Part shown: piece by piece, positions 4,708 to 35,630 of the stretch | How positions within the stretch are numbered: the first letter of the stretch is position 1 | Layout: the number at the start of each line of letters is the position of its first letter | DNA from: a virus | Length of the DNA stretch: 64,000 nt | IMG/VR virus record: IMGVR_UViG_3300042898_002514 | Direction: 5' to 3' (one strand) | Program-made: the position numbers and the translations under genes | The notes under the pieces: model-generated | The model's database searches: none | Told to the model about the DNA's origin: nothing | Seen by the model: only the letters and a program-made list of their open reading frames with translations

Positions 4708-4782
4708 TAAATTGTACCAATAGGGCAATTTACAGAGCATAGTGCTCACAATTTAGATCTTACTTTATAAGGAGATATTATG
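4708..4782 (+). promoter_or_regulatory. ROSE-like RNA thermometer upstream of dnaK
   Basis: Two hairpins followed by TCTTACTTTATAAGGAGA, which pairs over the SD with a bulged purine. Confidence 0.6.
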
Positions 4783-6681
4783 TCTAAGATCATCGGTATT
4801 GACCTCGGCACCACGAATTCTTGCGTGGCTATCGTCGAAAATGGAATTCCCAAAGTTATTGAGAATTCAGAAGGTGCTAGAACTACACCCAGCGTGGTTG
4901 CCTACACCAACAATGAAATTCTAGTTGGTGCCAGCGCAAAACGCCAGGCAGTAACAAATCCCAAAAACACCATCTATGCTGCCAAGCGTTTGATTGGTCG
5001 TAAATTCACTGAGGATGCAGTTCAAAAGGACATCGACCTGATGCCTTATGAAATTATCCAAAACGGTAATGGTGATGCTTGGGTCAAGGCAGGAGAACAA
5101 CGTCTTGCTCCTCCGCAGATTTCAGCAGAAGTTCTGCGTAAAATGAAAAAGACAGCGGAGGATTATTTAGGTCATGAAGTTACTCAAGCAGTTATCACAG
5201 TTCCTGCGTACTTTAACGACAGCCAAAGACAAGCTACCAAGGATGCTGGACAGATTGCCGGCTTGGAGGTACTGCGTATTATTAACGAGCCTACTGCGGC
5301 AGCTCTTAGTTATGGCGTTGATAAGTCTGATAAAGCTGACAGGAAGATTGCTGTTTATGATCTTGGTGGCGGTACTTTCGACGTATCGATCATTGAGATC
5401 GCGAACGTGGAAGGCGACAAACAAATCGAAGTACTAAGCACCAATGGTGACACCTTTCTAGGTGGTGAAGATTTTGACCAACGCATTATGGAATTCCTAG
5501 TTGATGAATTCAAGAAAGATTCCGGAATCGATCTCAAGAAAGATATGCTTGCCCTACAGCGTTTAAAAGATGCTGCTGAAAAAGCCAAGATTGAATTATC
5601 GAGTTCTGCACAAACAGAAGTCAATCTTCCATACGTTACAGCTGATGCTAGTGGTCCTAAACATCTAGTGGTAAAGATCACCCGTGCAAAACTAGAAAGT
5701 CTTGTAGCTGATCTAATCGAACGTAGTCTAGCACCTTGCCGCACAGCTATGAAAGATGCAGGCATTACCGCCACTGACATCGACGAAGTTATTCTTGTTG
5801 GTGGTCAAACACGTATGCCTAAAGTACAAGAAGCTGTTGAGCAACTGTTTGGCAAAGCACCCCGTAAAGATGTTAACCCCGACGAAGCTGTGGCCGCAGG
5901 CGCCGCCATTCAAGGTGCTGTTCTAGGTGGTGATCGCAATGACGTTTTGTTGTTGGATGTTACACCGTTGAGTCTAGGCATTGAGACCATGGGTGGCATT
6001 ATGACCAAGCTGGTGCAAAAGAATACAACTATCCCAACTAAAGCTAGTCAAACATTCTCTACAGCAGAAGACAACCAGCCTGCTGTGACCATCAAAGCGT
6101 TTCAAGGTGAACGCGAACTCGTACAACATAACAAGTTACTAGGCGAGTTTAACCTAGAAGGTATTGCACCAGGACGCAGAGGACAACCTCAGATTGAAGT
6201 GAGTTTTGACATTGACGCCAACGGTATCATGCACGTCAGCGCCAAAGACAAAAACACCGGCAAAGAAAACAAAATCACTATTAAATCAGATAGTGGATTG
6301 AGCAAAGAAGAAATCGAGCGTATGGTTCAAGATGCTGAAGTCAATGCAGAAGCAGATAAGAAAGCACGTACACTGATTGAAACACGTAATGGTGCTGAAG
6401 CACAGATGCACGAAGTACGTAAAGATCTAGAAGAGTTCCGTTCAGAACTTTCTGAAACAGAAATCACTGAGTTAGAAACAGTGATCAAAGCAGTAGAAGA
6501 AGCTACCAAAGGCACAGACCCTGAAAAGATCACTGAAGAACTCAACAAGGTTTATCCGGCAATGAAAACATTATTGGATAAAAAGCAGGCCAAGGAACAG
6601 GCAGCTCAGGCGCCTCAACCAGAAGCCAAAGCAGATGACAATGTGGTAGACGCTACGTTTACTGAAACTAAGTTTAGCTAA
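4780..6681 (+). CDS. dnaK: Hsp70 chaperone DnaK
   Basis: [19 protein letters not shown], full length 633 aa. Confidence 0.99.
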
Positions 6682-16142: not shown

Positions 16143-16240
16143 GTTATGGTCTCACCGCTTTGTCTATAGACCGGGTATATGTATACCGTGTTGACGACCT
16201 ATAAAACCAACACCTGTTGGCTAGTTACTCCCCAAGGTAT
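16143..16240 (-). ncRNA. yybP-ykoY (Mn2+) riboswitch
   Basis: Minus strand reads UUGGGGAGUAAC...GUCGUCAACA...GGUGAGACCAU upstream of a TerC gene. Confidence 0.85.
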
Positions 16241-16258
16241 TTAGCGATAAATATTACT

Positions 16259-18319
16259 ATGAAAAAGCTACTATTAAACCCTTGGACCGCATTGGTCACT
16301 CTAGCATTAGTATTAGGCATCCGTCTTGTAGATCCTAGTTTTATTGAAAGCGTAAGACTACGTTATTTTGACACATTAGTAACTAGTCAACCTGCCAACG
16401 ATGTTCCTGTTTATACAGTCAACATTGATGAAGCAACTCTAGACAAGCTAGGACAGTTTCCTTTCCCTAGAGACATGTATGCTGATATCATTAAAGAGAT
16501 TTATAGACGTGATGCCGGACTGGTTGTGTTTAACGTGCTAATGCCAGAGAAAGATCGTTTTGGCAAGGATGCCGTACTAGGTGAAACACTTAAGAAGTAT
16601 CCTGTGGTATTACCAGCACTAGGAAGTGAACGTCAAAAGAATATTACTCATAGAACACCTGCACAAGTAATAGGCATGGATCCTAAGGGACTAGTTGTTG
16701 AGTATCCAGGATTGATTAGTAATGTGGAGCCGCAAGAAAGTCTAGCAGCAGGTGTTGGTATTGTTAATACATTTCCAGAGATAGACGGTGTTGTTCGTCG
16801 TATGCCCATGGTCATACTAAGTCAAGAAAAACTACATCCTAGTCTAGCATTAGAGACACTGCGTGTGGCTGCCAAGGATCCCAAGTTCCAAGTCAAGATT
16901 GGTGACATGGGTGTAGAAGCTGTGCGTGTTCCTAAGTTTGGCAAAGTACCAACGGACAACGAAGGTCGTGTTTGGATTGATTGGTCAGCAACGCCTAGAG
17001 AATACAGTTACATGCAGTTGCCTGAATCATTTGACGGCGGTATTGTTATTGTTGGACTCAGTGCTGCTGGTCTGGTAAACCCTGTTAGTACAGCCAAAGG
17101 TGAAGTATGGCCACAATACCTACAAGGTGCAGTCATTGGCACTATGATGACGCAGAGCAACATACAGCGTCCAGGTTGGGCTGACCAAGCTGAGATCATT
17201 GCCTTGCTGGCCGCTGGATTACTAGTACTATTTTTATCAAGGTGGACCTATGCTTTTATTCCTGTTGTTGTCTTTCTCGGCGGCAGTCATTTCGCTATAT
17301 CTTATCTATATGAAAACTCCAGAATCCTATTGGACGCCACTTGGTTTGTTGTTGGCTGTAGTCTGGTATACATTCACGCTTATAGTGTCAAATTTTTAAG
17401 CGAGTACTTGCAAAAGTCACAGATTAAGAAACAGTTTGGCAGCTATGTAAATCCTGTAATTGTTGAACGCCTACAAAAAGATCCTAGCTTTATTAAACTA
17501 GGCGGAGAGAAGAAAGACCTTACCATCATCATGAGTGACATGCGCAACTTTACTGGCCTAGGTGAAACCTATGGTGATGACGTTGTGGCATTTACACAAA
17601 CAATGAATCGTTATATGACTGCCATTGCTGAACCTATACTGCGCAACAATGGATGCTTGATCAAGTTCATTGGTGATGCTAGTCTGCACGTTCATGGTGC
17701 TCCGATCCAAGAGCTTCAAGATCCTGATCATGCTCACGCTGCTGTCCGCACTGGACTAGAAATGATTCATGCTGTTGAACTGTTTAACATCGAACTTGAA
17801 CGAGAAGGAAAGCCACGTGTAGGTATGGGTTTGGGTATTAACACCGGTCCTACACTAATCGGTAACATTGGTAGTAAAGACCGATTTGGATATGATGTAC
17901 TAGGTGACTCAGTTAGTTTAACAGCACGACTAGAAAGTCAAACCAAGAACTATGGACAACTAATCATTATCAGTGAAAGCACAGAGAAGCGTGTTAACGA
18001 TCAGTACTTTACTATTCCTTTAGACTGTATTGCAGTCAAGGGCAAGACCATTGGTGTTAATATTTTTACTGTATTCTACATGCCTGATGAAACTGTAGCA
18101 GTTAAATGGAACACTGCCCGTGATATGCATAACGGTATGTTGACCTATTATAAGCAGCAAAAGTGGGATGACGCTATAGAATTATGCAAGACACTCACTG
18201 GTGAATTTGACGGCAATATGGATCACTACTATGAACTGTGGATTGAGCGTATAGCTGATATGCGCTCTAGAGATTTACCAAAAGATTGGGACGGTACCTA
18301 CAAAGCTACCTCGAAGTAA
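16259..18319 (+). CDS. CHASE2-domain class III adenylate/guanylate cyclase
   Basis: GQFPFPR, DGVVRR, 3 TMs, SDMRNFT, KFIGDA, YDVLGDSV...ARLE. Confidence 0.93.
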   Translation: MKKLLLNPWTALVTLALVLGIRLVDPSFIESVRLRYFDTLVTSQPANDVPVYTVNIDEATLDKLGQFPFPRDMYADIIKEIYRRDAGLVVFNVLMPEKDRFGKDAVLGETLKKYPVVLPALGSERQKNITHRTPAQVIGMDPKGLVVEYPGLISNVEPQESLAAGVGIVNTFPEIDGVVRRMPMVILSQEKLHPSLALETLRVAAKDPKFQVKIGDMGVEAVRVPKFGKVPTDNEGRVWIDWSATPREYSYMQLPESFDGGIVIVGLSAAGLVNPVSTAKGEVWPQYLQGAVIGTMMTQSNIQRPGWADQAEIIALLAAGLLVLFLSRWTYAFIPVVVFLGGSHFAISYLYENSRILLDATWFVVGCSLVYIHAYSVKFLSEYLQKSQIKKQFGSYVNPVIVERLQKDPSFIKLGGEKKDLTIIMSDMRNFTGLGETYGDDVVAFTQTMNRYMTAIAEPILRNNGCLIKFIGDASLHVHGAPIQELQDPDHAHAAVRTGLEMIHAVELFNIELEREGKPRVGMGLGINTGPTLIGNIGSKDRFGYDVLGDSVSLTARLESQTKNYGQLIIISESTEKRVNDQYFTIPLDCIAVKGKTIGVNIFTVFYMPDETVAVKWNTARDMHNGMLTYYKQQKWDDAIELCKTLTGEFDGNMDHYYELWIERIADMRSRDLPKDWDGTYKATSK

Positions 18320-26028: not shown

Positions 26029-26117
26029 GGAAGTGTGCGCTGAATTGGTTGAAGGCAACGGACTGTAAATCCGCCACATAAGAAACATTGTAGGTTCGAA
26101 TCCTACCACTTCCACCA
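26029..26117 (+). tRNA. tRNA-Tyr(GTA)
   Basis: Cloverleaf, long variable region, encoded CCA. Confidence 0.92.
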
Positions 26118-26123
26118 AGTTTT

Positions 26124-26199
26124 GCCTCGTTCATATAACGGTCTATTATATCCGCCTGTCTAGCGGAATACAGGGGTTCGACTCCCCTACGAGGCGCCA
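26124..26199 (+). tRNA. tRNA-Asp(GTC)
   Basis: TCCGC-CTGTCTA-GCGGA, CCA. Confidence 0.92.
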
Positions 26200-26205
26200 G
26201 TTTAT

Positions 26206-26281
26206 TCCCCGATAGCACAGAGGTAGTTGCGCTTCGCTGTTAACGAAGATGTCGTACGTTCGATCCGTACTCGGGGAGCCA
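26206..26281 (+). tRNA. tRNA-Asn(GTT)
   Basis: CTTCG-CTGTTAA-CGAAG, CCA. Confidence 0.92.
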
Positions 26282-26287
26282 GACAAT

Positions 26288-26361
26288 GTATCTCTAATGT
26301 AATGGCAGCATCACAGTCTCCAAAACTGTTCGTCGGGGTTCGAGTCCCTGGAGGTACGCCA
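26288..26361 (+). tRNA. tRNA-Trp(CCA)
   Basis: ACAGT-CTCCAAA-ACTGT. Confidence 0.92.
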
Positions 26362-26369
26362 AACAATTT

Positions 26370-26444
26370 GCACGATTCGTCTATCGGTTAGGACGCTGCC
26401 CTTTCAAGGCGGAAAGACGAGTTCGATTCTCGTATCGTGTACCA
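26370..26444 (+). tRNA. tRNA-Glu(TTC)
   Basis: CTGCC-CTTTCAA-GGCGG. Confidence 0.92.
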
Positions 26445-26451
26445 ATATACC

Positions 26452-26525
26452 GCGGGATTAGTTTAATGGTCAAACGAAACCTTGCCAAGGTTTAGTCAGG
26501 AGTTCGATTCTCCTATCCCGCTCCA
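26452..26525 (+). tRNA. tRNA-Gly(GCC)
   Basis: AAACC-TTGCCAA-GGTTT, U73. Confidence 0.92.
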
Positions 26526-26528
26526 TAT

Positions 26529-26620
26529 GCCAGCGAGACTTGACAGTCAGAGAGTCCTTATAAGACTTTTAGCGCCAGATTAGCGTTCTTGAGAGGGTTT
26601 GATTCCCTCCGCTGGTACCA
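26529..26620 (+). tRNA. atypical tRNA with TAT anticodon (Ile codon AUA)
   Basis: 7-bp acceptor, 4-nt D loop, extended anticodon stem, long variable arm, CCA. Confidence 0.65.
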
Positions 26621-26626
26621 CACCAT

Positions 26627-26704
26627 ATAGGGATGGCAGAGAGGCCCAATGCAACAGTCTGCAAAACTGTAAACCCGTGGGTTCGAATCCCACTCCCTAT
26701 TCCA
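26627..26704 (+). tRNA. tRNA-Cys(GCA)
   Basis: ACAGT-CTGCAAA-ACTGT, U73. Confidence 0.9.
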
Positions 26705-26708
26705 ATAT

Positions 26709-26785
26709 ACCCCTGTACGCTAATTGGTAGTGCGGGTAGACTTAAAATCTGCTGGATGGCGGTTCGAATCTGCCCAGGGGTACCA
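26709..26785 (+). tRNA. tRNA-Leu(TAA), short variable loop
   Basis: GTAGA-CTTAAAA-TCTGC. Confidence 0.85.
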
Positions 26786-26853
26786 ATCAACCAGTCTTGG
26801 ACACGCAGACTTTAAAGCGATGTGGGAGTAGGTGGAAGCCCTGCACCTAATAT

Positions 26854-26943
26854 GGAAGTATGGCTGAGCATGGCTTAAGGCAGCAGTCTTGAAAACTGAA
26901 GGCTCGAAAGGGTCCGTGGGTTCGAATCCTACTACTTCCGCCA
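26854..26943 (+). tRNA. tRNA-Ser(TGA)
   Basis: Long variable arm, G73. Confidence 0.93.
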
Positions 26944-26947
26944 ATTT

Positions 26948-27021
26948 TCCCGGATAATTAAATGGTATAATAATCGGCTGATAACCGGTCTTCGCAAGTT
27001 CGATTCTTGCTCTGGGAACCA
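26948..27021 (+). tRNA. tRNA-Ile(GAT)
   Basis: ATCGG-CTGATAA-CCGGT. Confidence 0.9.
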
Positions 27022-27042
27022 ATTTTTAAAATGGAGAATGAC

Positions 27043-27063
27043 ATGAAACGAGGTAAACTCTAG
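27043..27063 (+). CDS. mini-ORF MKRGKL (putative regulatory peptide)
   Basis: GGAG SD 6 nt upstream of ATG; stop overlaps a hairpin. Confidence 0.4.
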   Translation: MKRGKL

Positions 27064-27124
27064 TGTCATCCTAGACCCCCGTATGGTCCTGGATGGCACG
27101 TAAAAGAAAATATTTACGATCCAT

Positions 27125-27199
27125 CCACGCTAAACTTTAGTGGCGAAGTACCCGGCTCTTAACCGGACTAACTGAGTTCGATTCTCAGAGCGTGGACCA
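27125..27199 (+). tRNA. tRNA-Lys(CTT)
   Basis: CCGG-CTCTTAA-CCGG; A at position 8. Confidence 0.85.
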
Positions 27200-27202
27200 T
27201 AT

Positions 27203-27278
27203 GGGAGTATAGTGAAATGGTTATCACAGCAGACTTTTAATCTGCCAGTTCCGGGTTCGAGTCCCGGTGCTCCTACCA
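27203..27278 (+). tRNA. tRNA-Lys(TTT)
   Basis: GCAGA-CTTTTAA-TCTGC. Confidence 0.93.
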
Positions 27279-27359
27279 TAGACAAACACATTAGAAGCCT
27301 TCGTGACTGTGGGCGAGTAGGTCTCTAAGTCGTTTCCGACTAGTGTGTTTTTCTATGGT
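27275..27359 (+). repeat. hairpin cassette 3
   Basis: ACCATAGACAAACACATTAG / CTAGTGTGTTTTTCTATGGT, 45-nt loop. Confidence 0.8.
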
Positions 27360-27464
27360 TAGTATCAGAAGATGTGATCGAAACAGGTGTACTAGTCATA
27401 CACAATGTCGTGACCGGAGGATGAGAAGTCGCAAGAGTAGGCCTGACCGCTAGAGGGTAGCGAC

Positions 27465-27552
27465 ACCATATAAAAACACATTAGGCCTGATCATAGATCA
27501 TCGCGGGTATAGTGCCTTCCGAGCCGCGGACTTGAGTGTGTTTTTATATGGT
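27465..27552 (+). repeat. hairpin cassette 4
   Basis: ACCATATAAAAACACATT / AGTGTGTTTTTATATGGT, 52-nt loop. Confidence 0.8.
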
Positions 27553-27624
27553 AACGTAGCATAATGGTCGTGCACCTCCTTCATACGGAGCAAGGTGCTG
27601 GTTCGAATCCAGCCGTTACCACCA
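27550..27624 (+). tRNA. tRNA-Met/Ile2(CAT), elongator type
   Basis: CTCC-TTCATAC-GGAG, paired 1-72. Confidence 0.85.
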
Positions 27625-27627
27625 AGT

Positions 27628-27824
27628 TTTGTAAGTGTCAGCAAGAGAAAGACTCGCTAGGAAGATTCTTCGAAGGTCAACCTAGTGCAAAAGTAGGGCG
27701 GGTTCGAGTCCCGTAAAAGCAGCGGAGCACCTATGTCAAGTATTCCAAGTGATGTACCACCTCCCGTCCGGACCAGTGCAATCGGGTGAATGGTAGAGAT
27801 TAAAGTGGCTCTACTACTTACAAA
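27628..27824 (+). ncRNA. unclassified structured RNA with internal T-loop
   Basis: Closing stem TTTGTAAGT/ACTTACAAA; GGGTTCGAGTCCC internal; no convincing ORF. Confidence 0.5.
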
Positions 27825-27833
27825 TTCAATTAT

Positions 27834-27909
27834 CTCTCTAAAGTGTTATCTGGTTGCATCCGCGGTTTGGGGCCGTGTGGTCTAGGTTCGAATCCTAGTA
27901 GGGAGACCA
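27834..27909 (+). tRNA. tRNA-Pro(TGG)
   Basis: CGCGG-TTTGGGG-CCGTG. Confidence 0.88.
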
Positions 27910-27917
27910 GTTTCTGT

Positions 27918-27991
27918 TGGGGGTTAGTTAAATGGTATAACCGCGGATTTTGATTCCGCTATTAAAGGTTCGATTCCTTTACCCTCTGCCA
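27918..27991 (+). tRNA. tRNA-Gln(TTG)
   Basis: GCGGA-TTTTGAT-TCCGC. Confidence 0.9.
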
Positions 27992-27998
27992 AATTTAT

Positions 27999-28075
27999 CG
28001 GACCGTAATTCAATTGGATAGAAAGCAAGTCTTCGAAACTTGAGGTTGGGAGTTCGAATCTCTCCGGTCCGGCCA
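27999..28075 (+). tRNA. tRNA-Arg(TCG)
   Basis: CAAGT-CTTCGAA-ACTTG. Confidence 0.9.
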
Positions 28076-28091
28076 TATAAAGGAAAATGCT

Positions 28092-28259
28092 ATGAAAACA
28101 ATTACATTTAAAAATAGATTCAACAATGAGCGAGTGGTCTGTAATGATCCCAAGGCTGTACAAGTAATTGACGGCATTGAGTACCTGTTGGTCAGCAAGA
28201 CCATTCAAGATAGAAAATTTCTAATGCGTAAAGATGCATTGGAGAAGATTAAAACATAG
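28092..28259 (+). CDS. hypothetical 55-aa protein
   Basis: AAGGA SD, MKTITFKNRFNNERVVC... Confidence 0.65.
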   Translation: MKTITFKNRFNNERVVCNDPKAVQVIDGIEYLLVSKTIQDRKFLMRKDALEKIKT

Positions 28260-28265
28260 ATCAAT

Positions 28266-28339
28266 GTTGTTCCTAGTGTAGTGGCTGCACAACTGTCTGT
28301 GAAACAGTTAGAGAGGGTTCGATTCCCCGGTTCAACCCA
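28266..28339 (+). tRNA. tRNA-His(GTG), degenerate acceptor/T stems
   Basis: ACTGT-CTGTGAA-ACAGT, G-1; two U-U mismatches and a shortened T stem. Confidence 0.65.
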
Positions 28340-28355
28340 ACAAAGTAGAAATATC

Positions 28356-28760
28356 ATGGAACAAGTAAAAATATTAAACACATTAAAGGGATCTGTTCGT
28401 AAGTTCGAAGAATTACTAGGACGATCATTGTACAAGGCAGAAGCAGACGACTCAGTATTGACACTGTATCTGTCCAAGACAAACTATGTAAGATTCCAAC
28501 ATCACCAAGATTGTTGCGAAAGTGTTTACATAGAAGACATATGTGGTGACCTCGATGACCTTGTGGGAGCACCACTAGTTGAAGCTGAAGAAGTTTCTGA
28601 CTATGAAGGTGAAGCTACAGGAGACGAGTCTTACACATGGACATTTTACAAGTTTGCTACACGCAAGGGATTTGTAACTGTTCGGTGGTATGGTTCCAGC
28701 AATGGATACTATTCCGAAAGTGTCAGTGTTGATGTAGTTGATACTACTATAAAGGATTAA
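28356..28760 (+). CDS. conserved hypothetical phage protein
   Basis: HHQDCCESVYIEDICGDL, WYGSSNGYYSE motifs. Confidence 0.8.
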   Translation: MEQVKILNTLKGSVRKFEELLGRSLYKAEADDSVLTLYLSKTNYVRFQHHQDCCESVYIEDICGDLDDLVGAPLVEAEEVSDYEGEATGDESYTWTFYKFATRKGFVTVRWYGSSNGYYSESVSVDVVDTTIKD

Positions 28761-28761
28761 T

Positions 28762-28837
28762 GCAACTTTAGCTGATGTGGTCATAGCGGCGGTTTGAAGA
28801 ACCGTTGAACCAGGTTCGATTCCTGGAGGTTGCACCA
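28762..28837 (+). tRNA. tRNA-Phe(GAA)
   Basis: GCGGT-TTGAAGA-ACCGT. Confidence 0.9.
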
Positions 28838-28875
28838 AGACAAATGCGAGAATGGTGGAATTTAATAAATATTAT

Positions 28876-29439
28876 ATGAACATATTATTCCTTCCAATTG
28901 ATATTGAAATTCCAAAGATTGATACATCAAAAATACAGTCTACAATTAACGTCATCAACAACCTAACCTACATAAAAACTGCAGAGTATCAACAGTATTG
29001 GGATACTTCTAGAATTACTGAAACAGTTGATGATACTTTAAAATCTGTACTAGATCAGTTGCCTATAAGCAAAGTAACAAATGTATATTATAAAGAGCAA
29101 AGACAAGCTGTGTCACCTCATTACGATGTATATCCAAATATGAAATTTGAAGAAGGAGAATACACTAATATTTTAGATAACGAACCTGCAGGGTATCGTC
29201 TAGTCCTAGAAGGGTCCACTGATGTACTTTATGTTAAAAGTGGAGGCACGTTTAAGTTAGCAGAATTGCCATCTGTGCCTTGTTGTTATCTTTTAAATAC
29301 CACAGCAGGGCTACACATGCTCAAGGATGATCCGGGCAGAAAGATTATCTATATTAGAGGATTTATTGATACAGCAAGGCATCAGACGCTGATAGAAAAA
29401 AGTCTCAAACGTTATAAAAATTTAGCAATTATTGCATAA
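28876..29439 (+). CDS. putative 2OG-Fe(II)/cupin-fold oxygenase
   Basis: PHYD and distal H; paralog of island genes at 38-42 kb. Confidence 0.65.
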   Translation: MNILFLPIDIEIPKIDTSKIQSTINVINNLTYIKTAEYQQYWDTSRITETVDDTLKSVLDQLPISKVTNVYYKEQRQAVSPHYDVYPNMKFEEGEYTNILDNEPAGYRLVLEGSTDVLYVKSGGTFKLAELPSVPCCYLLNTTAGLHMLKDDPGRKIIYIRGFIDTARHQTLIEKSLKRYKNLAIIA

Positions 29440-29443
29440 CATT

Positions 29444-29518
29444 GCCGCCTTTGTATAATAGAGAATACAGCTCTCTTCCAAAGTGCGAATAGGAGTTCGA
29501 TTCCTAGAGGTTGCACCA
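29444..29518 (+). pseudogene. chimeric/degenerate tRNA (3' end copied from tRNA-Phe)
   Basis: Acceptor halves do not pair well; 29495-29519 matches 28814-28838 at 24/25. Confidence 0.65.
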
Positions 29519-29563
29519 ACTAAGTTGGACTCTTAGAACTCTACATAATTAATAAATACCAAC

Positions 29564-30127
29564 ATGCAAAACTTTTATAAACACTTTCCAGAAATAGATA
29601 ATGTATATTGGACTAACTATTTTTTGAAAGAATTCATACCAAAATATAAAATTTTTGAACAATTGTCTAGTCCTTTATATATGATGTATTTTAAAAAAGA
29701 TTTTTATAAAGATTTAGAAATATTAAAACTTAGTTCGTTGCTAGTTAGTAAACTAAAATTTCCACCGATTGAATATTTTTCAATATTTAAACACACGTAT
29801 TCCCAGGCCATTCATGCTGATGGTAAATCAACATTGAGATATGCAAGCTTCAACTTACCTCTCGTGGGGTTTGAAGGGACAAGGATGTGTTTTTATAATA
29901 CAAAATCAAATGTTATTCCTAAAGTAGCAGATGCTTATTATTTTAAAGAAGATGATGTATGTCTTGCTACAGAACTAGAAGGCAAGAATGAATGGACATT
30001 AGTAAACAGTTCAATCCCACATAATATTGTGAATGTAGATTTTAATAATCCTAGAATAACAGTATGCATTAGATTTAATGGTAATCCAAAACTTGAGGAT
30101 CTAATAACAAATGAAATTCAATCCTAA
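29564..30127 (+). CDS. putative 2OG-Fe(II)/cupin-fold oxygenase
   Basis: IHAD...LVNSSIPHNI...RITVCIRF. Confidence 0.65.
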   Translation: MQNFYKHFPEIDNVYWTNYFLKEFIPKYKIFEQLSSPLYMMYFKKDFYKDLEILKLSSLLVSKLKFPPIEYFSIFKHTYSQAIHADGKSTLRYASFNLPLVGFEGTRMCFYNTKSNVIPKVADAYYFKEDDVCLATELEGKNEWTLVNSSIPHNIVNVDFNNPRITVCIRFNGNPKLEDLITNEIQS

Positions 30128-30159
30128 GGACGGCACCAAAAAATATTTTAAAATAACTG

Positions 30160-30188
30160 TTGACAAGATAACGTAATGACTATATAAT
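30160..30188 (+). promoter_or_regulatory. sigma70 promoter
   Basis: TTGACA-17-TATAAT. Confidence 0.85.
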
Positions 30189-30241
30189 AGTTACATACTA
30201 AGCAATTAGTAATGTTCATTAAAAATTTAAAGTAAGATTTT

Positions 30242-30325
30242 GCGCAAGTGGTGGAATGGTATACACGATGGTCTTAGAAGCCATTGCCGAAAGGATTGAG
30301 AGTTCGAGTCTCTCCTTGCGCACCA
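30242..30325 (+). tRNA. tRNA-Leu(TAG)
   Basis: Class II cloverleaf, CCA. Confidence 0.93.
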
Positions 30326-30408
30326 TATTGAAACATATTAAAGATAGGGTTGTAACGGTTCATTGAACTTTAGTACATACCGTGGTAGTTAGTGTGTTTC
30401 AATATGGT
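30322..30408 (+). repeat. hairpin cassette 5
   Basis: ACCATATTGAAACATATTAA / TTAGTGTGTTTCAATATGGT, 47-nt loop. Confidence 0.8.
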
Positions 30409-30418
30409 AAAGAATTTT

Positions 30419-30493
30419 GCCTGGTTAGCTCAGGGGTAGAGCGTCTCGTTTACACCGAGAGGGTCCGCGGTTCGAAACCGTGACCAGGTACCA
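30419..30493 (+). tRNA. tRNA-Val(TAC)
   Basis: TCTCG-TTTACAC-CGAGA. Confidence 0.93.
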
Positions 30494-30512
30494 CTAGTAG
30501 AAAGAAGACTGT

Positions 30513-30653
30513 ATGATACCCAAAGAAATTATAGACCAGGCATACCGAAATATTCCTAACAAAGTGGGGTTTGCTGTCAATTGGAATTTTACGCCGACTT
30601 GGCGTGGTGTGAGATATTACTGGTATAAATTACTACGTAAAGCAACAAGATAA
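30513..30653 (+). CDS. hypothetical 46-aa protein
   Basis: MIPKEIIDQAYRNIP... fills the gap between tRNAs. Confidence 0.5.
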   Translation: MIPKEIIDQAYRNIPNKVGFAVNWNFTPTWRGVRYYWYKLLRKATR

Positions 30654-30654
30654 T

Positions 30655-30742
30655 GGAGCATTGGCCGACCGGTTAAGGCAACAGATTGCTAATCTGTCAC
30701 TGCGCAAGTGGTGAGTAGGTTCGATTCCTACATGCTCCGCCA
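30655..30742 (+). tRNA. tRNA-Ser(GCT)
   Basis: Long variable arm, G73. Confidence 0.93.
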
Positions 30743-30946
30743 GAACGTTCCGAGTGTCTTCGGATAGTGTGACCCGCACGATGAGAAGTAGTGTGACAAC
30801 TACGGGTGGTAGTCTTTAAACCCAAAGGCCGCTAGCAATGCGAGAACGGTCCCTGTCGGGAAGCGGGTGGAAGGTACGAGTGAGAGGTATGATAGCGTCA
30901 TATCTTTCTGTACTATAATTACCGCCGGGGGACGTCAGAGCAACCA
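30743..30946 (+). ncRNA. unclassified GC-rich structured RNA ending in ACCA
   Basis: Multiple hairpins (TCCGA/TCGGA, GTAGT/ACTAC, GAGAGGTATGA/TCATATCTTTC). Confidence 0.5.
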
Positions 30947-30967
30947 GATTTTAATAAAGGAAACATA

Positions 30968-31180
30968 ATGAAACCAGGTCCAAATTACAAGATGTCATCT
31001 TTGACTAAAGCAAGTCTAGCAATGAGTAGAGTTCTAGATCCTCACAAGCGAGGTGAGTGGAAACGTGCCATGATTGATGCAGAGCTATGTGCCGCTGTTC
31101 AACCCAAGCGTGAAACACGCAAACCGGGCAATGGTAATTTTACCACCCATGCATCTGGGACCGTATCTTCAGGAAGTTGA
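30968..31180 (+). CDS. hypothetical protein
   Basis: AAGGA SD, 70 aa. Confidence 0.65.
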   Translation: MKPGPNYKMSSLTKASLAMSRVLDPHKRGEWKRAMIDAELCAAVQPKRETRKPGNGNFTTHASGTVSSGS

Positions 31181-31181
31181 T

Positions 31182-31472
31182 ATGAGCAAGGGATCTAAAG
31201 CAAGACCCTTTAGTGTCAGCCAGCGTGAGTTTGACAATAGATGGGATACAATTTTTCGCAAGAGTCCTCAAGAAGTGCAAGATGCAGTTCGAGAAGATGA
31301 AGAATTTAACAGGATTGATACTATGCAAGTACGAGTAAAAGAAGATGAAAGTAAAATCGGATCTTGCGGTTGCGGTCGTTCGCCAACCGGCAAGTGCATC
31401 GGTTGGCACGGACTAACCGAAGAAGCATTTAAAGAAAAACTTCAAGAGTATAAACTCAACGAAGGTAAGTGA
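31182..31472 (+). CDS. CDGSH-like iron-sulfur/zinc finger protein
   Basis: CGCGRSPTGKCIGWH. Confidence 0.65.
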   Translation: MSKGSKARPFSVSQREFDNRWDTIFRKSPQEVQDAVREDEEFNRIDTMQVRVKEDESKIGSCGCGRSPTGKCIGWHGLTEEAFKEKLQEYKLNEGK

Positions 31473-31478
31473 AATATT

Positions 31479-31554
31479 GGGGGATTGGTATACTTGGCTA
31501 ACACACCTGGTTTGCAACCAGGAGCAAACGGTTCGAATCCGTTATCCTCCACCA
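31479..31554 (+). tRNA. tRNA-Ala(TGC)
   Basis: G3-U70, CCTGG-TTTGCAA-CCAGG. Confidence 0.92.
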
Positions 31555-31560
31555 AGCATT

Positions 31561-31634
31561 GCCCTTATAGTTAAATGGTATAACGGCGGTTTTGTAATCC
31601 GCAGTTTGCAGTTCGATTCTGTGTAGGGGCACCA
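31561..31634 (+). tRNA. tRNA-Thr(TGT)
   Basis: Cloverleaf, CCA. Confidence 0.9.
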
Positions 31635-31650
31635 ATATAGTCAAAAGATG

Positions 31651-31679
31651 TTGACAAACATCTTGTATAGTGCTATAAT
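31651..31679 (+). promoter_or_regulatory. sigma70 promoter
   Basis: TTGACA-17-TATAAT. Confidence 0.85.
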
Positions 31680-31703
31680 AGTTTTGTTGTGTAGCAATAC
31701 ACA

Positions 31704-31927
31704 ACCGGCAAAGTGAAAGGTAGATGAGAGAAGACACTACTGTTTGGCTTCATGCCAAATGGAACTTAACTCCAAATACTCTGAAAAAGTATCCGTGTCA
31801 TTGTGTTCCGGCCCCAAAAGATATTTGTTTATTGATTACCGGAAATATAGTGACCCCTGTGGATTGTATATTGAGCATTGTTATTTGCACATTGTCCAGT
31901 CTTTTACTTGACCTTTCACTGAACCGT
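31704..31927 (+). ncRNA. structured RNA/leader upstream of rpoZ
   Basis: Perfect 10-bp long-range stem AGTGAAAGGT (31712) / ACCTTTCACT (31911) plus inner stems. Confidence 0.5.
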
Positions 31928-31946
31928 TTTTTAACCTGAGGAAAAT

Positions 31947-32192
31947 ATGACATCAAGATTAACATCAGAATTAGCAGTAGAACAGATAGGCAATAGGTTT
32001 GACTTGGTACTAGTTGCCAGTCAGCGAGCCCGAGAGTTAAAAAACGGTTCAATGCCCAAAGTCGCTGAACCAGGCAAAACATTTATTTCTACAGCACTTC
32101 GAGAGATTGAAGAAGGCAAGTATACCTATAAAGATTATATTAATAAATTACCAAAAAAACGTAAAGGACAACGAGATGAATATTTCACTTAG
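31947..32192 (+). CDS. rpoZ: RNA polymerase omega subunit
   Basis: IGNRFDLVLVASQRAREL...ALREIEEG. Confidence 0.9.
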   Translation: MTSRLTSELAVEQIGNRFDLVLVASQRARELKNGSMPKVAEPGKTFISTALREIEEGKYTYKDYINKLPKKRKGQRDEYFT

Positions 32193-32748
32193 AAAAGCCA
32201 GCGCCCTACAAAACAGCATCAATGATGCTATCAAGGGCATTAAAATCACAACATCGATTGATCTCAATGAATTTCAAGATGTAGCAGTAGAACTAAAGAA
32301 TGCCAACGATACGCTGTTTAACAACGACAGTCGGAGACAACGCCTGCTGTTGGCCTTGTATAACATTCGTGGTCTTGTGGGCAGTGCCAACGCACAAAGC
32401 GGCATTGATTTGAAATTGGCCACTGCTGCCTTTGTGGACAAACGTGTTGCTCAACTTGAAGGTCTTGTAGTAGATCCTGTAACTAATCTTGCCGTGATCA
32501 ACGGTAAGTTGGACAAGATTCGCAACGACAAGAGCGAAAGTAGCCGTAGCCGTATCTATGGATTTAGTGACACAGTGTCTACTAATGTCATCGGTCACGA
32601 ACAGCTAGATGTGATTAGTACAGAGATTAAAAATCTCAAGAAACAAAAGCAGAAACTCAACGATGAAGTACTTGAGTTAAATATCAAAACAGAGATTCCA
32701 CTCAGTGAAGAAGTAGTGGCAACATTGCAATCAGAAGGTTTAGTTTAA
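32176..32748 (+). CDS. hypothetical coiled-coil phage protein
   Basis: AAGGA SD, MNISLRKA. Confidence 0.8.
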   Translation: MNISLRKASALQNSINDAIKGIKITTSIDLNEFQDVAVELKNANDTLFNNDSRRQRLLLALYNIRGLVGSANAQSGIDLKLATAAFVDKRVAQLEGLVVDPVTNLAVINGKLDKIRNDKSESSRSRIYGFSDTVSTNVIGHEQLDVISTEIKNLKKQKQKLNDEVLELNIKTEIPLSEEVVATLQSEGLV

Positions 32749-32751
32749 AAA

Positions 32752-32952
32752 CCCGTGATCCCGTACACGTAATAAACGGGGGTGGGGCAGTCACCATAGA
32801 GAGCGCCGGGTATTCAATGCTATGACCATTAGTTCTCTGAGTTAAGGGATACTAGAACGCATTGGGTGAGGTTTAGCACCTTTCCAGAAGAATAAATGTT
32901 ATGGACAGAGTAACCGCTCAGTTCGGGGCTTATGTGGTGTAAGTAGCCGGAC
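32752..32952 (+). ncRNA. unclassified structured RNA region
   Basis: H-type pseudoknot plus hairpins; no convincing ORF. Confidence 0.4.
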
Positions 32953-33065
32953 ACTTTATTAGAACAAATTAGAATCTTGTAGAAATACTTGATTAGGTTT
33001 GGCTTCCCCGGAGCTCTTTAGCATAGCTATAACTTTTAATATGCCTTAGTTTGTTTTAATAAAGT
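32953..33065 (+). repeat. hairpin cassette 6
   Basis: ACTTTATTAGAACAAATTAG / TTAGTTTGTTTTAATAAAGT, 73-nt loop. Confidence 0.7.
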
Positions 33066-33068
33066 TAT

Positions 33069-33144
33069 CGCAGGATGGAGAAGGTGGTATCTCGGAAGTC
33101 TCATAAGCTTCAGATCGTCGGTTCGACTCCGACTCCTGCAACCA
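33069..33144 (+). tRNA. initiator-type tRNA-fMet(CAT)
   Basis: C1-A72 mismatch; anticodon stem lacks the three G-C pairs. Confidence 0.85.
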
Positions 33145-33149
33145 ATATT

Positions 33150-33299
33150 ATGAAATTATTTGAAGCAACAATCAGAGTCAACGGCAAAGAATTCAAGGAT
33201 CGTGTTGGTGCAGAAACAGCACAGGAAGCAATGAAGCTTCTGCAACAGAGATACGGTCCTAGAGCAGTGCCCTATGTTCCTCATATGATTCCCAATTAA
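33150..33299 (+). CDS. hypothetical 49-aa protein
   Basis: MKLFEATIRVNG... Confidence 0.65.
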   Translation: MKLFEATIRVNGKEFKDRVGAETAQEAMKLLQQRYGPRAVPYVPHMIPN

Positions 33300-33301
33300 T
33301 T

Positions 33302-33378
33302 CGGAGTGTGGCGCAGTCTGGTAGCGCACCTGGTTTGGGACCAGGGGGTCCAAGGTTCGAATCCTTGTACTCCGACCA
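33302..33378 (+). tRNA. tRNA-Pro(TGG), second copy
   Basis: CCTGG-TTTGGGA-CCAGG. Confidence 0.93.
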
Positions 33379-33391
33379 ATTTTTTAAATTT

Positions 33392-33988
33392 ATGAAAATA
33401 ACAAAATGTAATCTATTTCCAATTTCACTTTTTGAAGTTTCAGAGTTTTTGACTGTAACTCAGTGCAATGATATTGTCACTTACATACGAGGATTACCTA
33501 AAAAACCTTATCCGGCAATGACTGGGAAATCGTTTACTACATTTAATATTTCTAATAGATTATTAGAAGACATTCAACAACATGTAAAATCATGTGCTAA
33601 TATGTTATCATCATTATCTGATATTGTGTTAGAATATGAAAAAACATCTGGTTACAACTGTGGTAAACTAGGTAATTCTTGGGCTAGTTTTCAATATAAA
33701 GATAGTGCATTATTAACCCATACTCATTATTCTAGTTTAATATCGGGCGTATTGTATTTGCAAGTAGATAATAATAGTAGTAAAATTATTTTTAATAATG
33801 TTAATCCTTTTTTAGAATATCTACCTAAAAAACATCTTACAACATATACATACAATAAAATGAGTTTCGAACCCACTGTTGGGAAATTAATAGTATTTCC
33901 CAGCTGGTTACCACATGGTTCAGACACTGAGTTGAATAAGTCGGACGAACGAATAATTATTAGTTTCAATACTGAATTAATAATTTAG
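33392..33988 (+). CDS. 2OG-Fe(II) oxygenase (TIGR02466-like)
   Basis: HTH..S.ISGVLY, FPSWLPH, RIIISFN. Confidence 0.85.
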   Translation: MKITKCNLFPISLFEVSEFLTVTQCNDIVTYIRGLPKKPYPAMTGKSFTTFNISNRLLEDIQQHVKSCANMLSSLSDIVLEYEKTSGYNCGKLGNSWASFQYKDSALLTHTHYSSLISGVLYLQVDNNSSKIIFNNVNPFLEYLPKKHLTTYTYNKMSFEPTVGKLIVFPSWLPHGSDTELNKSDERIIISFNTELII

Positions 33989-34023
33989 TCAGTTTTCTAC
34001 CAAATTTTTTATAAAAGGCAACA

Positions 34024-34209
34024 ATGACAAAAGCAGAAAATCAAGCGGCAACAGAAGCAGCGATGGCTGAGTTTCTAGCCAAAGGTGGTGTAGTTCAACA
34101 ACTAAAACCAAATCAAAGTGGTAGGGTCGAAGGAGAATCATATTCAATGTGGTCTAAGAAAAAGCCTTCAACTTCACCTTTGGCCAATCCTCCAGAAGAC
34201 GACGAATAA
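34024..34209 (+). CDS. hypothetical protein
   Basis: EFLAKGGVVQ motif. Confidence 0.7.
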   Translation: MTKAENQAATEAAMAEFLAKGGVVQQLKPNQSGRVEGESYSMWSKKKPSTSPLANPPEDDE

Positions 34210-34223
34210 ATAGAAATAACAAT

Positions 34224-34297
34224 GCGGGGTTCGTATAGTGGTAATACCTCAGATTTCCAATCTGATGCGGACAGTTCGATTCTGTTACCCCGCTCCA
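34224..34297 (+). tRNA. tRNA-Gly(TCC)
   Basis: TCAGA-TTTCCAA-TCTGA. Confidence 0.93.
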
Positions 34298-34301
34298 AAT
34301 T

Positions 34302-34880
34302 ATGCACACAGTTATTGACAGAAACGATACCTTTAGAAAATTTGACTTTAGTTCTACGATCGGTAAAGAAGATAATACAACTGCCATAGGCATTATAAAG
34401 AATATTGTCGCCGATGGGAACTATTTTAAAAATAGTCCAAAGTATCAAACCCAAGAAAACATATTTGCAAGACCCGAAGCTGTATGGTTAAAGTACCGTA
34501 TGAGTTTCTTGTTCAGTGTGTTTATGTATCTTGGGCGAGAAGTAAAAGTCAATAACATGATGGCCTGGGCATTTATGACCAATCTAGAAGGTGTAGAAGA
34601 TCGTGAAAAGCTATGGCACGATCATTGGCATCCTACAAATCCAAATGCCAAGATGCTGAGTGGTATATTTTATCTGCATATTCCCGAGGATGTAAAAGAC
34701 CGTGATTATTGCGGAACTGAAATGGCGCCAAATGGACCCCAAGGCGAAGGAAAGTTCTTTGTTCGCCCTACTGATTACAGTTGGTTGTTGTATCCCAGTA
34801 ATCAATGGCATCGACCGGGCGTGGTCCAAAGCAATGATTATAGATTTATCCTAGCAGTGGACGTAGAATATCTACCGTAA
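34302..34880 (+). CDS. 2OG-Fe(II) oxygenase-like protein
   Basis: WHDH, SGIFYL, YPS..WHRP, RFILA. Confidence 0.75.
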   Translation: MHTVIDRNDTFRKFDFSSTIGKEDNTTAIGIIKNIVADGNYFKNSPKYQTQENIFARPEAVWLKYRMSFLFSVFMYLGREVKVNNMMAWAFMTNLEGVEDREKLWHDHWHPTNPNAKMLSGIFYLHIPEDVKDRDYCGTEMAPNGPQGEGKFFVRPTDYSWLLYPSNQWHRPGVVQSNDYRFILAVDVEYLP

Positions 34881-34942
34881 TAAAACTGTAACAGTCTTTT
34901 TGTCTAAAAGACATAAGTACGCATATAAACTGAAAGAAAAAA

Positions 34943-35377
34943 ATGTTATCCTTTATCACCAATCTCACTGACCCACTCCTAGATTACATAAAGGATGATC
35001 CTGTTCGCCCTGAGTTGCCTAAGGAGTTTAGGGTAGGAAAGAACAAGTTTGTGAGTGCTCTAGTTGATGACATTCCTCGAGCTATGGTATGTGTGAGTTT
35101 ACACGATTTCATACCGGAAGATGTCGATGATTTGATCAAAGATACGGAAGTGCCAACCGCAGCAATTTTCTACACCATTTGGAGTTACGCCCCGGGGGCT
35201 GGTGTAGAATTGCTGAGAGCAACTGTAGCAGAAATACAAAAGCAATTTCCCAGCATAGAACGCTTTGTCACTCTGAGTCCAAAGACCGATATGGCCAAGA
35301 AGTTTCATACCAAAAATGGCGCCGGAGTTTTTAGAGAAAATTTAGACACCGTAAACTACGAGTACGATGTAAAATAA
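34943..35377 (+). CDS. GNAT-fold-like hypothetical protein
   Basis: AIFYTIWSY..GAG...FVTLSP. Confidence 0.65.
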   Translation: MLSFITNLTDPLLDYIKDDPVRPELPKEFRVGKNKFVSALVDDIPRAMVCVSLHDFIPEDVDDLIKDTEVPTAAIFYTIWSYAPGAGVELLRATVAEIQKQFPSIERFVTLSPKTDMAKKFHTKNGAGVFRENLDTVNYEYDVK

Positions 35378-35434
35378 CAACTCTCCCTGACAGGCGGAGT
35401 ATAATGAGCCAAATAGTCTGTCATCAACAACACG

Positions 35435-35478
35435 GCCCTGCCCTCTAAGACATAGTACTTAGGGCAGGGTTTTTCTTT
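35435..35478 (+). terminator. intrinsic terminator
   Basis: CCCTGCCCT...AGGGCAGGG plus U tract. Confidence 0.7.
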
Positions 35479-35480
35479 AT

Positions 35481-35555
35481 CCGGCCTTAGTATAATGGAT
35501 AATACAGCGGTCTTCTACACCGTGAATATGGGTTCGATTCCTGTAGGCCGGACCA
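35481..35555 (+). tRNA. tRNA-Arg(TCT)
   Basis: GCGGT-CTTCTAC-ACCGT. Confidence 0.9.
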
Positions 35556-35556
35556 C

Positions 35557-35630
35557 GCTCTTGTAGTAAAATGGTATTACACAGTCTTGGTAAGACTGAA
35601 TTTCAAGTTCAATTCTTGGCTAGAGCACCA
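35557..35630 (+). tRNA. tRNA-Thr(GGT)
   Basis: CAGTC-TTGGTAA-GACTG. Confidence 0.85.

Follow-up and report, generated by a model that had tools for sequence, protein, structure and literature searches.

In the leaders trpL, hisL, pheL, leuL and thrL, and in pheM of pheST, a short open reading frame (ORF) led by a Shine-Dalgarno (SD) sequence carries codons cognate to the product that is controlled. The position of the ribosome in such amino-acid operon attenuators chooses between the exclusive pairings 1:2, 2:3 and 3:4, and the result is a negative feedback on decoding capacity. In the ermC and cat leaders, a ribosome that a drug has stalled on a short ORF changes the fold of a hairpin further downstream post-transcriptionally and frees a ribosome-binding site. 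T-box riboswitches, which control synthetase genes, sense the state of one tRNA species by binding it in trans as a free tRNA, no ribosome being involved. In rRNA processing stalks and in the RNase III sites of phage T7, the 5′ flank of a stable RNA pairs with its 3′ flank. Finally, phage T5 answers the loss of host tRNA-Lys, which is cleaved by the PARIS defence, with a tRNA-Lys of its own and thereby escapes (PMC11464382).

Here we describe an element of about 180 nt, in which an SD-led mini-ORF with lysine codons precedes two phage tRNA-Lys genes, and which resembles each of these systems in part. It shares with the attenuators the cognate codons, the exclusive pairings and the predicted negative feedback. 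Instead of a terminator with a U-run, however, its 3:4 pairing consists of the acceptor stems of the two tRNAs, with no T-run, and what it is predicted to control is how the RNA folds and matures, not its transcription. Region 1 does not contain the regulatory codons, which precede it, and stalling would favour 1:2; the controlled genes are the two tRNA-Lys genes instead of a biosynthesis or synthetase operon. A ribosome on the leader ORF is predicted to remodel a downstream hairpin as in ermC and cat, but here it is the ends of tRNAs that are masked, and scarcity of the cognate tRNA would be the signal. As in T-boxes, a UGG segment of the leader can pair with an NCCA end of tRNA, yet the T-box covariance model found no match in the leader (27022-27124; Rfam, E-values up to 1). 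In contrast to the rRNA stalks and the T7 sites, the flanking helix includes mature tRNA nucleotides, competes with another hairpin and is coupled to a mini-ORF. For the T5 tRNA-Lys, no regulatory leader was reported (PMC11464382), and a link to defence is conjecture for the element described here. No published description of a lysine-codon/tRNA-Lys switch was found in the literature, nor was an Rfam family found for it. From its sequence, the element appears to be a case of leader-peptide control with an unprecedented output.

The element is located in a 64,000-nt stretch of viral DNA (IMG/VR record IMGVR_UViG_3300042898_002514), the whole of which is called the window below. Its source is an uncultured lake-water phage: at least half of the sampled words of the window were present in 14 lake-water metagenome runs, three of which are possible sources. 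The window encodes a full-length Hsp70 (4780-6681; 845 bits) and a CHASE2 adenylate/guanylate cyclase (16217-18319), whose nearest cultured relatives, at 34-39% identity, are those of Methylophilales phage Melnitz and Pelagibacter phage HTVC008M. In GenBank phages the leader had no relatives, and matches were limited to the tRNA bodies. ARAGORN predicted 29 tRNA genes, all on the + strand, spanning 26029-35630. Among these calls is a 92-nt tRNA-Ile(TAT) at 26529-26620, perhaps an interrupted or a false tRNA, which the Rfam tRNA model did not report even at E-values up to 1. A below-threshold tRNA match (23.7 bits) between two ORFs at 29444-29515 may be a tRNA remnant. Two long inverted repeats, at 27279-27359 and 27465-27552, have a common stem core (ACACATTAG ... 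GTGTGTTTTT) and unrelated interiors. The first begins directly at the ACCA end of tRNA-Lys(TTT), and neither matched Rfam. An SD-led, Pro-rich mini-ORF of 18 codons is present at 27733-27789, 45 nt upstream of tRNA-Pro(TGG). Five of its codons encode Pro, with a Pro-Pro-Pro run among them; it was considered as a parallel case and rejected because its fold was not significant (z −0.5), and a Pro-rich mini-ORF preceding tRNA-Pro was not seen in the relatives.

All features of the element lie on the + strand. The SD sequence GGAG (27033-27036) is placed 6 nt 5′ of the mini-ORF ATG AAA CGA GGT AAA CTC TAG (27043-27063), which encodes MKRGKL and a stop. Its lysine codons are both AAA, codon 2 at 27046-27048 and codon 5, two codons before the stop, at 27055-27057. 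Hairpin A (27063-27099) follows, in which arm 1 (27063-27077), beginning at the G of the stop codon, pairs with 27085-27099 around a loop at 27078-27084. It consists of 9 bp, one of them G-U, between 27063-27071 and 27091-27099, and an inner stem, GACC/GGTC, between 27074-27077 and 27085-27088. Helix B1 (27090-27127) pairs 27090-27096 with 27121-27127 and stacks on an inner hairpin (27099-27104/27113-27118); its 3′ side comprises leader nucleotides −4 to −1 and nucleotides 1-3 of the first tRNA. Hairpin A and helix B1 share a strand and are mutually exclusive. A third pairing, the possible hairpin 0, joins 27038-27044, which includes the first two bases of the start codon, to 27063-27069 of arm 1. 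The leader fold was more stable than its own shuffled versions (z −3.4), and in an Rfam scan with E-values up to 1 the leader (27022-27124) had no match, the only match within the element being to a tRNA, at 27126-27194.

The original prediction had proposed two tRNA-Lys genes directly after the mini-ORF leader, and ARAGORN indeed places tRNA-Lys(CTT) at 27125-27199 and tRNA-Lys(TTT) at 27203-27278, 3 nt further downstream. All of its coordinates were likewise verified on the sequence. The list of pairings it gave was correct for A and B but incomplete, as it omitted a pairing of the leader with 27194-27205. This helix, B2, was found by folding the leader together with the tRNAs, and has 12 bp with one G-U. 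Its 5′ strand (27078-27089) is formed by the loop and the inner 3′ arm of hairpin A, and its 3′ strand (27194-27205) by nucleotides 71-76 of tRNA-Lys(CTT), the spacer TAT and nucleotides 1-3 of tRNA-Lys(TTT).

While tRNA-Lys(TTT) scores 68.5 bits with the Rfam tRNA model, tRNA-Lys(CTT) only just passes the threshold (30.7 vs. 29 bits), and its D arm is odd. It starts with C1-G72 and C2-G71, and its CCA is encoded. A C1-C2 start is unusual for tRNAs; in the tRNA-Lys(CTT) of 70 relatives C1 is invariant and C2 nearly so, despite widely differing bodies. Non-standard T loops (ATCGTTA) were seen in the tRNA-Lys(CTT) of some relatives.

Several hundred related loci were gathered from IMG/VR by an exact-match scan, protein-anchored searches and pattern scans. 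A relaxed regular expression run over all loci yielded at least 125 unique segments, which were deduplicated to at least 120 unique leaders with the same pattern: an SD sequence, ATG, five codons, TAG and then hairpin A. Among the matches listed, a tRNA-Lys stands directly after the segment in 124 of the 125 unique segments (99 CTT, 25 TTT), and in 91 of the 95 CTT-type relatives a tRNA-Lys(TTT) follows 2-7 nt after tRNA-Lys(CTT). Since the combination of ORF and hairpin recurs in at least 120 unique versions and 124 of 125 segments adjoin tRNA-Lys, it is a module beyond chance. In 13 of the 120 leaders listed, an upstream ORF of roughly 40-65 codons stops one base before the ATG of the mini-ORF. 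This is mostly a conserved 42-codon, basic and Trp-rich ORF with the motif SPQWWKHLKDWKR (e.g., in loci L001 and L009). The 42-codon ORF is dispensable and is absent from the window, where only its last bases remain, as the SD sequence.

A scan of genome contigs gave one real copy and one chance match. The real copy is a complete element (L367:2422-2659) on a 7.5-kb contig with 21 tRNA genes that was binned with a Crocinitomicaceae metagenome-assembled genome. The contig is probably phage DNA, and it gives at best a weak hint of the host; Crocinitomicaceae was rejected as a named host, a single 7.5-kb tRNA-array contig being too weak a basis. Assembled metatranscriptome contigs span the leader into tRNA-Lys(CTT), e.g., 27033-27205 with no mismatch, DNA carry-over being possible. 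As such contigs can neither show RNA ends nor exclude DNA, they were not used as evidence of expression.

The mini-ORF, which had been put forward as a lysine-rich reading frame, proved to be conserved. An SD-like core was present in 85 of the 87 relatives from searches in which the SD sequence was not forced. Lysine, always as AAA or AAG, occupies codons 2 and 5 in all 120 unique leaders listed, in some of which the codons were forced by the search. In the 37 unique leaders whose codons had been left free, lysine was nevertheless found at codon 2 in 37/37 (AAA 32, AAG 5) and at codon 5 in 37/37 (AAA 36, AAG 1), and these two are the only invariant sense codons. Codon 3 of the same leaders encodes Arg in 28 and five other amino acids in the remaining 9, while five amino acids occur at codon 4 and seven at codon 6; at codon 4, all four Ala codons were seen. 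One relative from an RNA library has an in-frame TAC inserted between the lysine codons, and the second lysine is still two codons before the stop. From these patterns, the mini-ORF looks translated. A small GAG/CTC hairpin within the ORF was rejected, as it is not kept in the relatives.

Related phages that lack the main leader often carry another one, in which an SD sequence is followed by M-x-S-D-K-S-D-K-(M/I)-x, with two AAG codons three codons apart. This second ORF extends into tRNA-Lys(TTT), with its stop at tRNA positions 8-28. It was found in 27 unique copies (among them L005:4897-4935, L008, L054 and L087), 26 of which precede tRNA-Lys(TTT), the distance from the ATG to the tRNA being 29-30 nt; no copy of this leader occurs in the window. 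In such a leader, an unstalled ribosome would itself unwind the acceptor stem. The recurrence of lysine codons in a second, unrelated leader is independent support, at the level of sequence, for lysine-linked control.

The lysine codons could have another purpose. An AAA second codon and a basic penultimate residue favour expression and termination, and a lysine at these positions could therefore serve efficient initiation and termination instead of sensing. The element would then be a folding or processing device whose alternative helices put the maturation of an unusual tRNA pair in order and in which the ORF merely recruits a ribosome to open hairpin A. This reading is in line with codon 3 being mostly Arg and the peptide generally basic. 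On the other hand, only the lysine codons are invariant (37/37), whereas the Arg of codon 3 is replaced in 9/37. Furthermore, among the matches listed the element is found only before tRNA-Lys, the unrelated second leader before tRNA-Lys also has two lysine codons, and no cognate mini-ORF was found before any other tRNA in these loci. We therefore consider a device without lysine sensing quite unlikely.

Covariation was assessed for each of the helices, and many of the sequences are closely related, so the counts given here overstate the number of independent events. In a 70-sequence alignment, helix A was paired in 88.1% of the cells, as compared to 26-48% with slid partners, and five of its pairs were changed on both sides. 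The real partners of hairpin A gave −20.3 kcal/mol and swapped partners −16.0 kcal/mol. The outer stem of B was paired in 88.4% of the cells of the same alignment. Both stems had been expected to covary, and each of them does: the column of 27093, which belongs to the shared strand, is compensated in both, with its A partner (UA 22, AU 16) and with its B partner, leader nucleotide −1 (UA 37, AU 22). The proposal that B sequesters nucleotides 1-3 of tRNA-Lys(CTT) was also backed, as the leader pairs to nucleotides 1 and 2 are GC in 69/70 and 64/70 relatives, respectively, and the pair to nucleotide 3 alternates between GC (33) and UA (17).

For B2, 76 unique leader/junction combinations were compared without gaps, anchored on the invariant TGGT and ACCA. 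Canonical pairs made up 86.8%, in comparison to 28-52% for slid and 75.0% (maximum 80.3%) for permuted partners. The spacer positions switch together with their leader partners (AT 36/TA 29, TA 35/AT 27 and GT 31/TA 26), and spacers of 2-7 nt are matched by A loops of fitting length and sequence. The pairing in B2 thereby explains why the loop of hairpin A is conserved in sequence. Stacked along a single leader strand (27078-27096), B1 (7 bp) and B2 (12 bp) are separated by the tRNA branch. The alternative state is thus modelled as a clamp that breaks both acceptor stems, the first losing its top and the second its 5′ strand. In the predicted fold, the expected RNase P sites at 27124/27125 and 27202/27203 are both within clamp helices. 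Since B2 reaches the 3′ end of tRNA-Lys(CTT), the spacer and the 5′ end of tRNA-Lys(TTT), both lysine tRNAs would be under control.

The leaders that precede only tRNA-Lys(TTT) were judged by per-sequence folds and a partner-swap control. In these, the same stretch forms one helix of about 20-25 bp that ends on tRNA nucleotides 1-5. Matched changes include CCC/GGG and TTCC/GGAA, and the real partners gave −26.3 kcal/mol as compared to −14.7 kcal/mol for swapped ones. RNAalifold on a MAFFT alignment of the TTT-type leaders returned hairpin A only, because the long helix was misaligned.

Two further readings of the locus bear on these helices. Alternative hairpins behind a leader ORF are ordered here as in trpL, and B could accordingly be the terminator of a classical transcription attenuator, in which translation gates the entry of the polymerase into the lysine tRNA genes. 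However, no T-run follows B, no terminator-like site was found in 27022-27127, and the 3′ arms of both B1 and B2 lie within the tRNAs themselves, which makes such an attenuator very unlikely. The hexapeptide could also be a functional product whose expression the hairpins merely tune, as might be suggested by the good SD sequence and the conserved length. Yet three of its five non-start residues vary freely, and helices that covary with tRNA ends would be left unexplained; we regard this as extremely unlikely.

The balance between the two states was calculated with a nearest-neighbour model, so that tRNA tertiary structure, base modifications and Mg2+ lie outside the following energies. For the RNA between the stop codon and the end of tRNA-Lys(TTT), they are −74.0 kcal/mol for the native state (hairpin A and two cloverleaves) and −76.8 kcal/mol for the clamp, so that the two are close to isoenergetic; with the ORF included, the values are −79.7 and −88.4 kcal/mol. 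The best path found between the two states has a calculated barrier of 19-22 kcal/mol. For the family, the mean difference of clamp minus native is +4.2 kcal/mol in 91 CTT-type and +2.6 kcal/mol in 25 TTT-type members. In a growing transcript, the minimum free energy (MFE) structure contains A up to 27196, by which point the first tRNA has been completed in its native fold; the clamp becomes the MFE structure only at 27204.

The effect of a ribosome was modelled by occlusion. With arm 1 free and only the first tRNA included, at least five of the seven acceptor pairs were kept in 94 of 95 relatives, and all seven in 62. Occluding 14 nt in silico, counted from the stop codon, caused 79 of the 95 to lose the whole acceptor stem. 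The sequence of the window's element with both tRNAs included, in contrast, is in the clamp at equilibrium with or without a modelled ribosome, so a role of the ribosome rests only on the order of folding and on the calculated barrier. B1 alone is weaker than A (mean −13.3 vs. −20.3 kcal/mol). A lasting switch therefore needs B2, and one ribosome, or several in succession, must keep arm 1 occupied while transcription proceeds to the junction about 105 nt downstream. The original prediction, in which a ribosome reaching the stop melts A and allows B, thus agrees with the structure and with the geometry of occlusion; it named B as the only alternative pairing, and this needs correction, given the weakness of B1.

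As the calculated MFE structure in the window is the clamp, the switch might work with the opposite sign or output. The clamp would then be productive or protective, either as a nearly continuous helix of about 20 bp that RNase III would cut to free the tRNAs or as a form of storage; translation to the stop would promote maturation and a stall would prevent it. B1 and B2 stack around tRNA-Lys(CTT) in the manner of rRNA processing stalks, and the TTT-type duplex of about 20-25 bp has the length of an RNase III substrate. Against this, the helix holds mature nucleotides of both tRNAs, and internal cuts would damage them. The family average, moreover, slightly favours the native state, and the lysine codons would produce a positive feedback without evident use, less Lys-tRNA leading to less new tRNA-Lys. 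In our judgement, a productive or protective clamp is unlikely.

We instead lean, with modest confidence, towards a ribosome-gated two-state RNA switch that governs the folding and the 5′ maturation of both phage lysine tRNAs. The structural part of this reading is strongly supported by the sequence comparisons, and we infer the direction of control. During transcription, hairpin A would form first and become kinetically trapped. A ribosome translating through to the stop would cover arm 1 and open A; with the usual footprint, a terminating ribosome would unwind about 27063-27072. Arm 1 would have to stay held for about a second, the time needed to transcribe about 105 nt. Region 2 would thereby be set free for B1 and then for B2, and the tRNAs would stay immature. 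If Lys-tRNA is scarce, e.g., when it has been cut by an anticodon nuclease, the ribosome would stall at codon 2 or 5. At codon 2 it would be well upstream of arm 1, leaving A shut, and at codon 5 it would reach only about 27062-27066, leaving A mostly intact. Codon 5 would be about the last stall position that spares A, which would explain why the second lysine is fixed two codons before the stop. With A shut, the tRNAs would fold natively and be released by RNase P. Ample Lys-tRNA would thus clamp both tRNAs and a shortage would free them, resulting in negative feedback.

Once the clamp has formed, the free arm 1 may pair with 27038-27044 across the start codon. Hairpin 0 was paired in 85.7% of cells as compared to 11-59% with slid partners, its covariation was no better than that of shuffles, and it is present in the MFE structure of the extended sequence. 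In the model, there is a weak indication that hairpin 0 closes the ORF when arm 1 is free, and the switch as proposed does not depend on it.

A more far-reaching version of this model, which we offer tentatively and hold to be possible rather than probable, is that the element is a phage-borne sensor of attack on tRNA-Lys. Stalling on the two AAA codons would set free two lysine tRNAs that are already made and clamped, and the phage would thereby have an inducible counter-defence against anticodon nucleases of the PrrC/PARIS type. It would then be the first leader-peptide attenuation acting on tRNA folding and RNase P access instead of on transcription or translation initiation, and the first case in which a tRNA regulates its own maturation via the ribosome. 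The link to PrrC and PARIS is conjecture. Non-native folds of pre-tRNA slow RNase P about 20-fold (PMC8915964); together with the escape of T5 from PARIS, this makes the proposed logic plausible, and neither of the two studies tests it.

If the ribosome-gated model is true, leader-peptide sensing would gain a new output, an alternative structure that disables the product RNA itself, and a tRNA would control its own maturation via the decoding step that it serves. Phages would then regulate their tRNA genes, beyond merely carrying them. As a compact and portable sensor, the element would also report how available a single tRNA species is, and it would provide a testable link between tRNA-targeting bacterial immunity and the counter-measures of uncultured freshwater phages.
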